From UHGV virus genome UHGV-0120322: a DNA stretch of 16,129 nt; one strand, 5' to 3'. Position 1 is the stretch's first letter. The number at the start of each line of letters is the position of its first letter. This stretch comes from a virus. The position numbers and the translations under genes are program-made. Positions 3,636-16,129 of this stretch are shown piece by piece. The notes beneath the pieces were generated by a model. The model ran no database searches, was not told the origin of the DNA, and saw only the letters and a list, made by a program, of their open reading frames with translations.

Positions 3636-4417
3636 GCTGCCACCTTCTGCTCAGTGGCTTTCTGTTTCAGGAATCCAAGAGCTTTCACTGCTTCGGCCTG
3701 TGTCAGTTCTGACGATGCGCGAATGTCGCGGCGAAATATCTGGGAACAGAGCGGCAATAAGTCGTCATCCCATGTTTTATCCAGGGCGATCAGCAGAGTG
3801 TTAATTTCCTGCATGGTTTCATCGTTAACCGGAGTGATGTCGCGTTCCGGCTGACGTTCTGCAGTGTATGCGGTATTTTCGACAATGCGCTCGGCTTCAT
3901 CCTTGTCATAGATACCCGCAAATCCGAAGGCCAGACGGGCACACTGAATCATGGCTTTATGCCGTAACATCCGTTTGGGATGCGACTGCCACGGTCCGGT
4001 GATTTCTCTGCCTTCGCGGGTTTTGAATGGTTCGCGGCGGCATTCATCCATCCACTCGGTAACGCAGATCGGATGATTGCGGTCTTTGCGGTAAATCCGG
4101 CATGTGCAGGATTCGTTGTCCTGTTCAAAGTTCATGCCGTCAAACTGCTGGTTTTCGTTGATGATGCGGGACCAGCCATCAACGCCCACCACCGGAACGA
4201 TGCCGTTCTGCTTATCAGGGAAGGCGTAAATTTCTTTCGTCCACGGATTAAGGCCGTACTGGTTGGCGACGATCAACAATGCGATGAACTGCGCATCGCT
4301 GGCATCACCTTTAAATGCCGTCTGGCGAAGAGTGGTGATCAGTTCCTGTGGGTCGACAGAATCCATGCCGACACGTTCAGCCAGCTTCCCAGCCAGCGTT
4401 GCGAGTGCTGTACTCAT
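3632..4417 (-). CDS. bet: Lambda Bet, Red-beta single-strand annealing protein (261 aa), full length
   Basis: Translation [59 protein letters not shown]... recognised as lambda Bet; ATGA overlap with exo. Confidence 0.97.
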
Positions 4418-8512: not shown

Positions 8513-8682
8513 TGACTACACCGCTTATTCGTGTCATGAACGGACACATCTACAGAGTACCAAATCGTCGTAAGCGTAAGCCTGAGCTGAAGCCATCCGA
8601 AATACCAACACTGCTAGGGTATACCGCCAGCCTGGTTGATAAAAAATGGTTGCGACTGGCAGCAAGGAGGAATCATGGCTGA
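8512..8682 (+). CDS. ninE: NinE family protein (56 aa)
   Basis: Translation [56 protein letters not shown], basic NinE-type protein; TAATG overlap with ybcN; not in ORF track because under 60 aa. Confidence 0.8.
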   Translation: MTTPLIRVMNGHIYRVPNRRKRKPELKPSEIPTLLGYTASLVDKKWLRLAARRNHG

Positions 8683-9546: not shown

Positions 9547-9930
9547 ATGCGTGATATTCAGATGGTTCTTGAGCGTTGGGGGGCATGGGCGGCTAATAAC
9601 CATGAGGATGTGACCTGGTCGTCCATTGCTGCCGGTTTTAAGGGATTGCTTCCTTCAAAAGTAAAATCCCGTCCGCAATGCTGTGATGATGACGCGATGA
9701 TCGTTTGCGGGTGCATGGCCCGTCTGAAAAAGAACAACAGCGATTTGCACGATTTATTAGTGGATTATTATGTCGGCGGTATGACATTCATGTCACTGGC
9801 AAGTAAGCATCGTTGCTCTGATGGTTATATCGGGAAAAAGTTACAGAAGGCTGAGGGAATAATTGAAGGGATGTTAATGGCATTAGATATCCGGTTAGAG
9901 ATGGATATCGTTGTTAATAACTCTAATTAA
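9547..9930 (+). CDS. quuD: Late-gene antiterminator Q (phage 21/82-type, QuuD-like, 127 aa)
   Basis: Start at [24 protein letters not shown]... with GGAGAAAG SD; Cys-rich centre ([12 protein letters not shown]) typical of Q-family zinc-binding antiterminators. Confidence 0.85.
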
Positions 9931-10118: not shown

Positions 10119-11201
10119 TTAGAACTGGTAAACCATACCTACAGCAACGATATCATCGGTAGCAACGCCAGATGCTTTCGTGAAATCGCTCTTATCAATC
10201 AGGTTGATTTTGTAGTCAACAAAAGTGGACATATTTTTGTTGAAGTAATAGGTTGCACCTACATCAACATATTCAACCAGGTCCTGATCACCCCAAACAC
10301 CCAAGTCTTTTCCTTTAGAATGCAGGTAAGCAACGGATGGACGCAGGCCGAAGTCGAACTGATATTGTGCAACAGCTTCGAAGTTTTGTGCTTTGTTGGC
10401 AATATGGTTATTACCAAAAACAGTCATGTTCTGGGTTTCAGAATAGGTGGTGGCCAGATAGATGTTGTTCGCATCATATTTCAGACCAGCTGCCCATACT
10501 TCAGCATTTTGACCAGAAGCATTCAGACCGTTGTTACCGTAGATAACCTGATTATTAGTGCGATCAGATTTAGCATAGGTTGCACCCACGCCGAATCCTT
10601 CATACTCATAAGTAGTTGAGAAACCGAAACCATCGCCATTAGCTTCAGTTACTTCTTTTCGGTCATTTTTGCCCTGATACTGAGCTGCAAAGTTCAGGCC
10701 ATCAACCAGACCAAAGAAGTCGTTGTTACGATAAGTTGCAACACCTGTGGTGCGACCAGTCATGAATACATCTGTTTGGGTCCAGGTATCGCCACCGAAT
10801 TCTGGCAGAACGTCGGTCCATGCACCAATATCGTATGCTACACCGTAGTTACGGCCATAATCGATGGAGCCGTAGTCACCGAATTTCAGGCCAGCGAAGG
10901 CAAGACGGGTTTTATCTTTGGAGGAACCTTGAGATTCAGCGCGGTTGCCTTTGAATTCATATTCCCACTGACCGAAACCAGTCAGTTGATCGTTGATTTG
11001 GGTTTCACCTTTGAAGCCAAGACGGGCATAAGTAGTATCACCATCATCTGCATCATTAGAGGAGAAGTAGTGCTTAGCATTAACTTTCCCGTACAGATCC
11101 AGCTTGTTACTGTCTTTATTATAAATTTCAGCTGCCTGAGCAGACATCGCCATCAGTACTGATGCAGCTACAGCAGAAATTGCCACTGTTAATTTTTTCA
11201 T
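10119..11201 (-). CDS. nmpC: Outer-membrane porin, OmpC/NmpC (Lc) family, intact (360 aa with signal peptide [23 protein letters not shown])
   Basis: Classic general-porin sequence ending in the C-terminal aromatic residue (...VGMVYQF); encoded antisense between Q and the lysis genes as in DLP12/PA-2. Confidence 0.95.
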
Positions 11202-12503: not shown

Positions 12504-12958
12504 GCAGAGTAACCGCGATTATCTCCGCTCTGGTTATCTGCATCATCGTCTGCCTGTCATTGGCTGTTAATCATTACCGTGATAACGCAATCGCCTACAA
12601 AGAGCAGCGCGATAACAAGGCCAGTGAACTGGAGAAGGCGAACGCCACCATCGCTGACATGCGGAAGCGTCAACGTGATGTAGCAGAACTCGACGCAAGA
12701 TACACAAAGGAGCTTGCTGATGCTAACGCGACTATCGAAAGTCTCCGTGCTGATGTTTCTGCTGGGCGTAAGCGCCTGCAAGTCGCCGCCACCTGTGCAA
12801 AGTCAACGACCGGAGCCAGCGGCATGGGCGATGGAGAAAGCCCAGGACTTACAGCAGATGCTGAACTCAATTATTACCGTCTCCGAAGTGGAATCGACAA
12901 GATAACCGCGCAGGTTAACTACCTGCAGGAATACATCAGGACGCAATGCCTGAAATAA
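12500..12958 (+). CDS. rzpD: Rz i-spanin (inner-membrane spanin subunit)
   Basis: ATGA overlap with endolysin stop; N-terminal TM helix ([20 protein letters not shown]) then coiled-coil-like periplasmic domain. Confidence 0.85.
12714..12905 (+). CDS. rzoD: Rz1 o-spanin lipoprotein embedded in the +1 frame of Rz (63 aa precursor; lipobox VSAC; proline-rich mature part)
   Basis: AAGGAG SD 7 nt upstream of ATG inside Rz; signal peptide plus lipobox Cys, then [12 protein letters not shown]. Confidence 0.8.
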
Positions 12959-12989
12959 TTTTTTTGCAAATCACAAAGTCCATTTAATG

Positions 12990-13014
12990 AGCCTCGCGAT
13001 GCGGGGCTTTTTTT
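12990..13014 (+). terminator. Intrinsic terminator after the lysis cassette (AGCCTCGC-GAT-GCGGGGCT followed by T7)
   Basis: 8-bp stem with one G-U pair, 3-nt loop, immediately followed by TTTTTTT, 32 nt after the Rz stop. Confidence 0.65.
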
Positions 13015-13163
13015 ACATCTGAATTTCACAGCGCATCTCACGCGCATATTACATCACCCGAGCCTTTCAGAAAGTTGAGCCTGAGAACTGCCGTATATGG
13101 TGGCGACCATCTCGGGGCGGCTTTTCTGTGAGACAGGCTCACTTTCTAAAAGGTAAAGACGCT

Positions 13164-13652
13164 ATGAACCAATTAGAAGAAAAGCTTCAAAGAATGATTT
13201 CCTTATACAAGGAAGATAACTGCCAAAAAGTTCCTGAAAACATCGCAGAGTTAATGGAATTGGCAAGTGAATTTTCTGGCATGCTTAAGTCGTCAGGTGT
13301 TCGGTCAGCGTTCTTTGTTGAAATGCTGATGCACGGCGGACTTATGGCAACAATGAGACGTGTAATGGAAGACCAGAGAAAAGAACCTCCTCAGGTATAC
13401 GTTTTGTCATCGAAGAAAACTGGGCTAACCAAAATTGGGTATTCATCCAACATTCCACAACGCATCAAATCGCTTGGCAACTCTGGACCAGACTGCTTGA
13501 AGCTTGAGTGCCTGATCCCTGGTGGAAGAGAAACTGAAAACATGCTTCATCGCAAATTTGCCGCAAAGAGAAAGCACGGTGAATGGTTCGCCCTGTCCAA
13601 GGATGACATTGAGGGATTGAAATCTGTAGCGATTACTTCTGATGGCTATTAA
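13164..13652 (+). CDS. GIY-YIG superfamily / T5orf172-domain protein (162 aa): helical N-terminal region plus C-terminal T5orf172-like nuclease-fold domain
   Basis: C-terminal motifs VYVLSSKKTGLTKIGYSSN ... R ... E ... GEWF match the T5orf172 (GIY-YIG-like) pattern; AAGG SD; sits where lambda carries bor; lower GC than the lysis genes. Confidence 0.7.
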   Translation: MNQLEEKLQRMISLYKEDNCQKVPENIAELMELASEFSGMLKSSGVRSAFFVEMLMHGGLMATMRRVMEDQRKEPPQVYVLSSKKTGLTKIGYSSNIPQRIKSLGNSGPDCLKLECLIPGGRETENMLHRKFAAKRKHGEWFALSKDDIEGLKSVAITSDGY

Positions 13653-14120
13653 TGCTTGTTTAGAGCAATTTTCATAACAACTCTTCATTACAAAGCCCAT
13701 CTACTGGTGGGCTTGATAATGAAACCGTGATTTACATCCCCACAATCCGGGTATGTAAAAGATAGTTCAGGCGAGAACGGATTTAACTAAATCTGTGCGC
13801 CACCAGTTAACGGCAGTACCACGAAACAACCCAAGCCAGTAAGTGGGGAAATAACACCGGCAGCCACTGAAAGATGAACCTCCTGCCTTATGGCAAAAAA
13901 GATTCTTTGTGGTGGCGGACTGATGGAAAGACATCCTAATTTCAGCCAAACATTGAAGGAGTTGTTATGTCAGCAGAAGGTTTCAATAACCCATCAAAAT
14001 TCCGGGATGAGTGGGATAGCAGCGTAAAGAGTAAGTGATGCCATCACAAAAGCCATTCCCTACAGAGTGGCTTTGATAATGGCTTATACCCTACACGGGA
14101 TAACTTAACTGATATCCCTT

Positions 14121-14285
14121 TTAAAGGATAAAGGTATTCAAGCCTGACACATCATGCGCTGTATCGTCGCCGTATTCCCGTATTAACAGAGACCGTAGCC
14201 CGACGGGGAACTCCTTCTGCGCGAGTGTGCGGGAATAATCAAAAACGATGCACACCGGGGTTACCGGGTACACATATTTCATCAT
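14121..14285 (-). CDS. Possible small ORF (54 aa, MMKYVYPVTPVCIVFDYSRTLAQKEFPVGLRSLLIREYGDDTAHDVSGLNTFIL); uncertain
   Basis: Protein-like composition in a GC-rich patch, but no clear SD; under 60 aa so absent from the ORF track. Confidence 0.2.
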   Translation of the reverse strand: MMKYVYPVTPVCIVFDYSRTLAQKEFPVGLRSLLIREYGDDTAHDVSGLNTFIL

Positions 14286-14330
14286 GCCAGCGAGTCCGGT
14301 TCTGGCACGGAAGAAACCGGACGTTATGAT

Positions 14331-14741
14331 TTAGTGCGGAAATATTTGTGTAGTGTTCTGAATGTTCTCAGTAAAGAGTAATGAATTATCAAAGGTATAG
14401 TAATACCTTTTGTTTTCGTGGATATTTGTAATCCATCTGAAAACCCCTGCTGTAGCAAGATTTTTCCTGTATTCGTAAAATGATAACTCTCCTGATTTGA
14501 ATCCTTTTAAGGTGGCTTCTATAAGGCATTTATTTTTTGAAAATCTTACATTTACAACCTTACTCTGTCCTTTTATTAAAACCGTATTATCGTTTTCAAG
14601 AACAAGATGAATATTCTCTGTGGCTAAATAGTAAATGTAATGTGAGACATTGTGACGTTTTAGTTCAGAATAAAACCAGTGATAGTTTAAATTATTTCGC
14701 ACTTTATCGAATATTTGTTTAAAAATGGCAACCTGAGCCAT
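14331..14741 (-). CDS. ybcV: YbcV-like protein (DUF1398 family, 136 aa), start taken at [11 protein letters not shown]
   Basis: Recognised as similar to DLP12 YbcV; GAAGG SD 7 nt upstream of the second ATG (14741); very low GC. Confidence 0.8.
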
Positions 14742-14798
14742 TGTAGTACCTTCCATGTGATATGAAGGTACCTAGTCTGCACGATTATCTAAATTGCT

Positions 14799-15032
14799 TC
14801 AATCTGGTCTGACCTGCTTTCTGAGCAATTCAGTAATGTCACTCTTTTCTTTGTTTGCTTCAGGCGAAACTCTTTTTTCTGAGCACAGTCTTCGGCGGCA
14901 GGCTTCAATGACCCAGGCTGAGAAATTCCCGGACCCTTTTTGATCAAGAGCGATGTTAATTTGTTCAATCATTTGGTTAGGAAAGCGGATGTTGCGGGTT
15001 GTTGTTCTGCGGGTTCTGTTCTTCGTTGACAT
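14799..15032 (-). CDS. ylcI: Ribbon-helix-helix (Arc/MetJ/CopG-like) small DNA-binding protein, DUF3950/YlcI-like (77 aa)
   Basis: Basic N-terminus then RNIRFPNQMIEQINIALDQKG-SGNFSAWVIEACRRRL, a beta-strand/helix/G-turn/helix RHH pattern; the conserved NIRF motif is recalled for YlcI-type proteins (tentative). Confidence 0.6.
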   Translation of the reverse strand: MSTKNRTRRTTTRNIRFPNQMIEQINIALDQKGSGNFSAWVIEACRRRLCSEKRVSPEANKEKSDITELLRKQVRPD

Positions 15033-15893: not shown

Positions 15894-16129
15894 ATGCTGC
15901 CGCAGCATAGCGATATTGAAATAGCCTGGTATGCTTCAATACAGCAGGAGCCGAATGGCTGGAAGACCGTCACCACACAGTTCTACATCCAGGAATTCAG
16001 TGAGTATATTGCGCCACTGCAGGATGCTGTAGATCTGGAAATCGCAACGGAGGAAGAAAGATCGTTGCTGGAAGCCTGAAAAAAGTATCGGGTGCTGCTA
16101 AACCGTGTGGACACTTCCGTAGCACCAGA
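15894..16129 (+). pseudogene. Tail-fibre assembly protein (Tfa family) C-terminal fragment with in-frame TGA at 16077-16079 replacing the conserved Trp; runs off the window end
   Basis: ...[40 protein letters not shown] matches the Tfa C-terminal consensus ([17 protein letters not shown]) apart from the stop. Confidence 0.75.

Follow-up and report, generated by a model that had tools for sequence, protein, structure and literature searches.

What does a small nuclease-like gene do behind the lysis genes of a lambdoid prophage, in the place where lambda has bor? The question is raised by the viral genome UHGV-0120322, a DNA of 16,129 nucleotides (nt) that was analysed at its full length and is hereafter referred to as the window. 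The gene lies on the plus strand at positions 13164 to 13652 and encodes a protein of 162 residues. Our tentative answer is that it is a late-expressed, throttled and catalytically competent T5orf172 nuclease gene, carried as a selfish or competitive cassette. Judged by its sequence, the gene itself is an ordinary T5orf172-type nuclease gene that has already been annotated, and it adds little, as phage T5orf172 nucleases are known. Its context is more useful. It appears to be a precise and widely conserved lambdoid accessory slot, in which T5orf172 and HNH nucleases interchange with Rha-, KilA-N- and Ant-type proteins behind a structured leader that would block translation. In the sources searched, what goes beyond existing annotation is incremental: the HkbL homology of the N-terminal domain, the spectrum of cargo in the slot, a covarying leader that sequesters the Shine-Dalgarno sequence, and a sharp step in sequence identity. 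These slot findings overturn nothing, and they make the system experimentally approachable.

The nuclease domain

The program-made open reading frame (ORF) begins with a GTG at 13128 and ends with the stop codon at 13652. The ATG at 13164 is the supported start, because an AAGG lies 10 nt upstream of it, the homologues have their common N-terminus there, and the sequence that is shared between the different genes of this slot stops at this ATG. A Pfam search with the product bore out the T5orf172/GIY-YIG identity proposed in the initial annotation. It gave matches above cut-off to MUG113 (PF13455; E = 6e-15, 56 bits, cut-off 22.3) and to T5orf172 (PF10544; E = 2.8e-10, 41 bits, cut-off 20), both of which belong to the GIY-YIG clan, and the generic GIY-YIG model stayed below threshold (E = 0.19). 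PHROG 4284, a family of unknown function, matches the protein from end to end (E = 9e-88), and a search of NCBIfam gave no match. The defence nuclease PD-T4-3, UvrC, T4 EndoII and Eco29kI are found among the lower-ranked matches.

We aligned 65 homologous sequences, with identities down to about 23%. Residues Y79, K90, I91, G92, R100 and E125 are invariant in all 65, which includes the arginine and glutamate positions named beforehand as catalytic, and H129 and the segment G139-E140-W141-F142 are at least 90% conserved. The T5orf172/MUG113 motif set, (V/I)Y ... KIG ... R ... E..LH ... GEWF, is complete in the window protein. A structure predicted with AlphaFold2 (AF2) from the same alignment has a mean predicted local distance difference test score (pLDDT) of 89.6. 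Its C-terminal part has the order β-β-α-β-α-β-α of the GIY-YIG fold, with a three-stranded β-sheet and flanking helices, and this domain is basic by residue count.

In weak profile alignments, Y79 falls on the tyrosine of the GIY motif (Y19 of UvrC, Y6 of I-TevI) and R100 on the catalytic arginine (R39 of UvrC, R27 of I-TevI). In the same alignments the tyrosine of the YIG motif, which is present in the canonical GIY-YIG nucleases Slx1/HIGLE, I-TevI, UvrC and Eco29kI, is replaced by K90 throughout the family, so that the motif reads KIG and not YIG. In the model, E125 lies early in the helix that follows strand 3, and it would correspond in this way to the catalytic glutamate of I-TevI and UvrC. 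The family profile aligned by hhalign to the first half of I-TevI only, and weakly (E = 0.025), so the assignment of E125 as the catalytic glutamate stays one of topology. For the asparagine that completes the canonical catalytic set (Tyr, Tyr, Arg, Glu, Asn), no counterpart was identified in the window protein. In the T5orf172 protein Odn of phage ICP1, DNA cleavage is abolished by mutation of the glutamate that aligns with the catalytic glutamate of I-TevI (PMC8263062).

One cluster representative with 98% identity to the window protein (P0002, 114 member sequences) has the substitution E140G in the approximately 90%-conserved GEWF motif, as well as D109Y. Either E140 is dispensable or that lineage is losing the function.

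The gene is found with 488 of 489 nt identical in phage HK106, as gp64 (YP_007151734.1), which RefSeq names 'GIY-YIG nuclease family protein'. The two proteins differ by a single residue, M61R in HK106. HK106 gp64 also follows Rz and an annotated rho-independent terminator, and the gene has the same position in both elements, although HK106 has the backbone of a viable, HK97-like phage. The same gene is present in phage Chlobot and in DLP12-type prophages. In complete Escherichia coli genomes, 74 cover the region, and identity is 100% in at least 20 (the best 20 of the 74); some of the genomes with this region carry far more decayed DLP12-type remnants. A literature search on T5orf172 turned up no experimental work on HK106 gp64 or WP_016245257.1.

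The N-terminal domain

The part of the protein that precedes the nuclease domain is helical, as first proposed. In the AF2 model it is a three-helix bundle spanning residues 3-71, with helices 3-20, 23-43 and 49-71. It is not the orphan that it had been taken for. A profile of 16 such domains aligned over 71 columns with HkbL of phage HK620 (hhalign probability 97.8%, E = 7e-13), and the domain and phrog_875 match each other reciprocally in PHROG. The members of phrog_875 include HkbL itself (85 amino acid residues, aa) and the small HK97 gene that follows gp73 (HK97p61). In both HK620 and HK97, HkbL is encoded by a separate gene, directly 3' of a KilA-N gene in the same slot.

The domain has 12 acidic and 10 basic residues, counted from the translation, and even among family members its sequence conservation is low. 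It matched no Pfam family, DNA-binding families included, and no sequence relative of it was found in the PDB. In one homologue (P0085), a single polypeptide comprises Phage_pRha, an HkbL-like region and T5orf172, in this order, and it links the arrangement of HK620 with that of the window. Other close T5orf172 relatives have AntA heads. Compared with these chains, the window protein looks like the nuclease end of a pRha/HkbL/T5orf172 protein from which the DNA-binding head is missing.

The accessory slot and its cargo

The window aligns as a whole with the cryptic prophage DLP12 of E. coli K-12. Its left end is intD, which adjoins argU, and the aligned content includes rusA, quuD, a porin gene of the nmpC type and the lysis genes essD, rrrD and rzpD. 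From this content the window can be assigned to a DLP12-type cryptic prophage at argU, an element without head or tail genes. Homology to DLP12 of K-12 ends at 12769, inside Rz, and picks up again at 14155, just before the homologue of ybcV. The K-12 counterpart of the interval 12770-14154 consists of the 3' end of rzpD and of borD, and the proposed placement of the gene in the bor position is correct. The replaced block is larger than the gene. Lambda bor and DLP12 borD occupy the equivalent position, 3' of Rz and 5' of ybcV and the packaging genes, and have no homology to the window gene.

A selfish cassette that was stranded in such an element might be a functionless and neutral passenger awaiting decay. 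The missing structural genes are in line with this, as are truncated copies of the protein in the databases (P0010-P0012 and P0015) and the E140G substitution in P0002. However, the full-length ORF is intact in 74 complete E. coli genomes and in the viable phages HK106 and Chlobot, and the motifs are conserved among diverse homologues down to 30% identity. We consider the passenger explanation less likely, and improbable in absolute terms.

The DNA that is specific to the cargo extends from 13169 to 13685. On its left side, 12990-13168 shares 88% identity with the sequences that precede HK620 hkbK, a KilA-N gene, and rha in phage Gally. To its right, 13686-13935 and 14065-14132 are 91-98% identical to the DNA 3' of the slot genes of HK620, Gally, HK544, HK97 and P22. 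By these alignments the slot, which in lambdoid phages separates the lysis genes from those for packaging, corresponds to the classical position of P22 rha, HK97 gp73 and HK620 hkbK.

A scan of IMG/VR with a 15-mer that is invariant in the leader gave 112 leader copies, 56 of them distinct. Leaders of this type stand before Rha, KilA-N, ANT, HNH_3 or T5orf172 genes in over 100 viral contigs. The cargo right after the leader is most often Rha, with Phage_pRha and ORF11CD3 domains (58/105), and there is a second pRha class. Other cargo comprises three KilA-N classes, with or without ORF11CD3 or P63C, and ANT. Three HNH_3 homing-type endonucleases of 162-198 aa (L110, L039 and L046) stand behind the same leader. 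T5orf172 cargo has three architectures: the window type (13 copies), a second type represented by P0072 (2 copies) and a nuclease-first form of 188 aa (L055). At least eight cargo types share the leader and the right flank, and there is also an empty allele (L078, IMGVR_UViG_2698536618_000024, ~3809-3916), in which the right-flank block follows immediately on the leader's 5' half and inner terminator. On domain assignments, the cargo set would be the Rha/KilA-N/Ant/T5orf172 domain pool plus bona fide homing-endonuclease families.

The slot proteins of HK620 (HkbK and HkbL), HK97 (gp73 and HK97p61) and P22 (Rha) share the slot, the leader type and the right flank with the window gene. They are DNA-binding proteins without a nuclease domain, whereas the window protein has no DNA-binding head and has a nuclease fused after its HkbL-like module. 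A slot dominated by DNA-binding regulators (Rha, KilA-N and ANT), and an N-terminal domain homologous to the partner of the KilA-N genes in HK620 and HK97, would suit a domesticated protein that does not cleave. Such a protein would resemble CapR, a documented domesticated T5orf172 regulator (PMC10448857), or would stand in for Rha, KilA-N or Ant, and would bind DNA or a partner and modulate expression or development. The invariance of Y79, R100 and E125 and the near-invariance of H129 in the homologues argue instead for retained chemistry, and no DNA-binding module of the Rha, KilA-N or Zn-finger kind is found in the protein. The regulatory role is less likely, and on balance rather unlikely.

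A shared leader with a sequestered ribosome-binding site

The terminator reported downstream of Rz is real. It has a 9-bp stem (12989-13009) followed by a T-run to about 13014, a rho-independent terminator is annotated there in HK106 and HK544, and it is conserved in the leader alignment. This terminator, t1, had been understood as insulation of the cargo gene. It is instead part of a leader that also precedes the kilA-N or rha genes of HK620, Gally and numerous viral contigs.

Between t1 and the gene, the leader folds into a large hairpin with a minimum free energy of -44.3 kcal/mol (z = -4.1). The Shine-Dalgarno sequence AAAGGT (13149-13154) lies within the 3' arm of its outer helix. An inner GC stem (13090-13094 paired with 13117-13121) is followed by UUUUCU and makes a second terminator-like element, t2. 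When leaders were folded one by one, nearly every variant had the same fold. The arm opposite the Shine-Dalgarno sequence co-varies with it, as CCTTT/AAAGG, CCTTA/TAAGG and CCTA/TAGG.

A covariance model built from the window-type leader, R1, found 95 copies, including window 13057-13166. Divergent copies lie directly 5' of the KilA-N genes of HK544 and HK97 and at the start of P22 rha. On the R1 alignment, which was fitted to the model so that the following figures lean towards the structure, 92.7% of the paired cells can pair, against 46-54% with slid partners. Changes on both sides occur in 28 of 34 pairs, against 6.9 ± 1.9 in shuffles, and 0 of 500 shuffles reached the observed value. The outer helix was not recovered by RNAalifold from a plain MAFFT alignment, owing to indels, and we used the per-sequence folds and the covariance-model alignment instead. 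Both strands of the window hairpin fold well; over 59 variants the plus strand is modestly more stable and has twice as many G-U pairs. Neither the leader nor the right flank had a match in Rfam at E ≤ 1, and the consensus for integration host factor (IHF) was not enriched, its single match in the leader not being conserved.

Two further observations concern the leader. The GCGCAT repeat between t1 and the hairpin, which could be a protein-binding site, is kept in a leader of 71% identity (L008), with a spacing of N6. In three contigs the leader model has an additional match of lower score (31-50 bits), in L093 at 341-433, in L017 at 8535-8627 and in L046 at 9716-9829, which suggests that a single phage genome can carry more than one copy of the element.

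A scan for sigma-70-like promoters from 12700 to 14900 found none upstream of the gene and a single match downstream of it, at 14302-14330. Reading the upstream region by eye yielded only poor -35/-10 candidates. The initial annotation had described the gene as a bor-like moron, and this wording does not fit. A moron has its own promoter; here two terminator-type hairpins precede the gene, and the hairpin next to it pairs with its Shine-Dalgarno sequence. Lambda bor has the opposite orientation and is active in lysogens, whereas the window gene is co-oriented with the late operon. Since no promoter was found, we regard it as a throttled late-operon gene and not as a moron expressed in the lysogen. 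As predicted from their folds and conservation, t1 and the hairpin should form a shared control region of the slot, one that passes only antiterminated late transcription and then holds down translation. Such throttling would make sense where the cargo is a protein that binds or cuts DNA. In P22, rha has been described as a late-operon gene that is harmful to phage growth without IHF (PMC4936722).

The same evidence bears on a defence or exclusion nuclease, which would be made in the lysogen, or through the compatible Q of a superinfecting lambdoid phage, and would degrade incoming phage or plasmid DNA. The lack of a sigma-70-like promoter between Rz and the gene speaks against it, as do the preceding hairpins, the sequestered ribosome-binding site and the orientation with the late operon. 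Moreover, phages that are fully competent for lytic growth have Rha, KilA-N and HNH genes in the same slot and behind the same leader, and every homologue context that we examined lies within a late operon. A comparison with PADLOC-DB v2 gave a single match, to the candidate PDC-S57; it is weak (E = 7e-6) and confined to the nuclease domain (residues 73-146). We hold a defence role to be unlikely; it would revive if the Q of a superinfecting phage can turn on the late operon of the window.

Cassette exchange and mobility

Identity between the window and HK106 changes sharply along the locus. It is 90.3% in the 3' part of Rz, 88.4% in the intergenic leader, 99.8% in the ORF (1 of 489 nt differs) and 96.1% in the next 283 nt. 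Beside the tract that appears recently exchanged, there are 24 mismatches in the 107 nt before it and 11 in the 170 nt after it. The claim of horizontal acquisition is supported by this contrast between the ORF and its flanks (88-96%). The lower GC content that had also been invoked is indeed lower, but only modestly (0.43-0.45 in the gene and 0.49-0.53 in the lysis cassette). The same ORF stands behind both the window-type and the HK106-type leader allele, and the window-type leader is also found 5' of Rha genes.

Free-standing homing endonuclease genes are characterised by polymorphism at a fixed site with conserved flanks, by near-identical copies in diverged backgrounds and by a sequence-specific DNA-binding module. 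The first two are observed at this locus and the third is not. Homologues with 38-51% identity are single, co-oriented insertions at other sites of late operons. One lies in the gap between the lysis genes and terminase, behind the 71%-identical leader; another, in a lambda-like tail operon, separates the gene for the major tail protein from that for the tail assembly chaperone; and a third lies inside another tail cluster. By analogy, such scattered insertions in late operons would reflect the habit of free-standing homing endonuclease genes. T5orf172 genes have been described as a family of homing endonucleases that are located close to terminase and structural genes, where recombination boundaries fall (PMC10448857).

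The position near terminase might also suggest a helper in packaging or DNA processing, comparable to the HNH protein gp74 of HK97, which is encoded next to cos. In HK106 the gene is directly 5' of the gp74 homologue and cos, and in the context of P0014 it is upstream of terminase. However, the gene is optional, as the same phage types hold Rha, KilA-N or nothing in its place; HK106 keeps its own gp74-type HNH gene; and relatives are also found in tail operons. Packaging help is less likely than the roles above and, in our view, very improbable.

Proposed function

A late-expressed and throttled nuclease would act as follows. Transcription would occur only within the Q-antiterminated late transcript, and translation would be low and gated, the ribosome-binding site being sequestered. 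The product would be an active DNA endonuclease or nickase during lytic development. It would cut related lambdoid genomes or alleles that are without the gene, so that its own cassette is favoured in inheritance. The HkbL-like module would serve in oligomerisation or partner binding and not in direct recognition of DNA. A role in phage-phage conflict, as initially suggested, is plausible.

The T5orf172 homing endonucleases and their derivatives in vibriophage ICP1 and its satellite PLE (Odn/Gp88, Gp121, Gp130 and CapR) share with the window protein the Pfam domain and the conserved arginine and glutamate. Like the window gene, the ICP1-type genes are free-standing, in late or essential operons and at boundaries of genetic exchange. 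Their proteins differ in having Zn-finger (CapR/DUF723) or RepA_N DNA-binding domains, whereas the window protein has an acidic HkbL-like module and is much smaller.

Several points weigh against the proposed function. Within the nuclease domain, the second GIY-YIG tyrosine is a lysine, K90, in the whole family; the equivalence of E125 with the catalytic glutamate comes from topology and not from a residue-level superposition; and E140 is replaced by glycine in P0002, one representative of a 98%-identical cluster. No sequence-specific DNA-binding domain was recognised in the protein by the Pfam search, and 87% of the surveyed T5orf172 homing endonucleases carry Zn-finger modules (PMC10448857). 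The extra domain is acidic and poorly conserved, and matches only generic helical bundles. Non-nuclease cargo (Rha and KilA-N) is exchanged in the slot just as freely, so that the conserved flanks alone could drive mobility. Finally, as the cryptic prophage has no head or tail genes, a homing lifestyle cannot currently operate from the window copy. With these points considered, we keep the late-expressed nuclease as a tentative reading.

A bolder proposal, which we find doubtful, would join the leader and the protein. The leader would be an undescribed cis-regulatory RNA that combines a nested terminator with Shine-Dalgarno sequestration, and lambdoid phages would use it universally as a platform at which toxic, DNA-targeting cargo is docked and expressed. 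RNase III or a similar factor may process or open this RNA. The HkbL-T5orf172 protein would then be a 'headless' nuclease with its target specificity provided in trans. If this were true, the HkbL-like module would bind KilA-N/Rha-type proteins of its own phage, or of a competing or resident prophage, and the nuclease would be delivered to their DNA sites.

The slot offers a tractable system, in E. coli with HK106, HK97 and P22, for the study of homing or competition by T5orf172 nucleases. It is also a route to the function of the HkbL-like module, and to how phages throttle toxic late accessory genes.

The right flank and other features of the window

Table 1 Features of the slot in the window, and further copies of the leader.
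Feature	Position	Strand	Basis or remark
Intrinsic terminator t1 after Rz, 9-bp GC-rich stem and T7 run	12989..13014	+	Terminator scan
Direct repeat GCGCAT-N5-GCGCAT between t1 and the hairpin	13031..13047	+	Invariant columns, six leaders
Leader hairpin, outer helix ~20 bp, overall ~95 nt	13062..13154	+	Folding, covariance model
Recently exchanged cassette tract, 1 mismatch in 575 nt against HK106	13115..13689	+	Mismatch map
Gene, HkbL-like domain and T5orf172 (GIY-YIG superfamily) domain, 162 aa	13164..13652	+	Equals HK106 gp64, WP_016245257.1
N-terminal domain, acidic three-helix bundle, residues 1-75, HkbL-like	13164..13388	+	AF2, hhalign, PHROG
T5orf172/MUG113 nuclease domain, residues 76-155 (Y79, K90, R100, E125, H129, E140)	13389..13628	+	Pfam, alignment
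Right flank of slot, cargo-independent; hairpin 13693-13714; nearly invariant ~13825-13935	13686..13935	+	Alignments
Lineage-specific insertion, 129 bp	13936..14064		Absent from HK106, HK620, Chlobot
Second right-flank block	14065..14132	+	Alignments
Further leader copies	L006 1654-1764, L015 867-971, L016 342-457		Covariance model

The approximately 680 bp that follow the gene had been described as containing no convincing gene, and RefSeq annotates none 3' of 13652. They are not featureless, since the two right-flank blocks of Table 1 are 93-98% conserved in about 190 phage records. The P22 copy of the conserved block (window ~13801-13935) has the final 10 nt of rha at its start. The DNA that matches in HK97 (window ~13801-13935 and 14065-14132) separates the slot genes there from gp74, the HNH gene.

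Some 110 nt, 13825-13935, are nearly invariant in P22, HK97, HK022, HK620, HK106 and the approximately 190 phage records, despite mosaic neighbours. No conserved reading frame and no Rfam match were found in this segment, and its variation is too low for covariation. Two small ORFs of the right flank, 13874-13939 on the plus strand and 13787-13867 on the minus strand, were considered and rejected, as their frames are not conserved across homologues. By eye, two similar modules can be recognised, 13693-13721 and 14049-14082, each with GATAATG directly 3' of a hairpin, AAAGCC(C)A...TGG(G)CTT(T). Of the two, the module at 14049-14082 is at the edge of the 129-bp insertion, and a terminator is annotated beneath it in phage Ayreon.

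Three other features are outside the slot. An intact porin gene of the OmpC/NmpC type lies on the minus strand between the Q gene and the lysis genes (10119-11201; NCBIfam OmpC subfamily, 515 bits). Its homologue in DLP12 of K-12, nmpC, is split by IS5. On the minus strand at 14331-14756, a protein of 141 aa is labelled 'head protein' by PHROG 413, and its homologue in RefSeq and K-12 is YbcV, a DUF1398 protein. The PHROG label looks like an annotation artefact, since the gene is outside any head operon and its RefSeq/K-12 name is YbcV. In the tfaX-proximal part of the prophage, the Rfam family IS009 matches 15917-16120 on the plus strand, with 110 bits against a gathering score of 117 (E = 1.6e-25).

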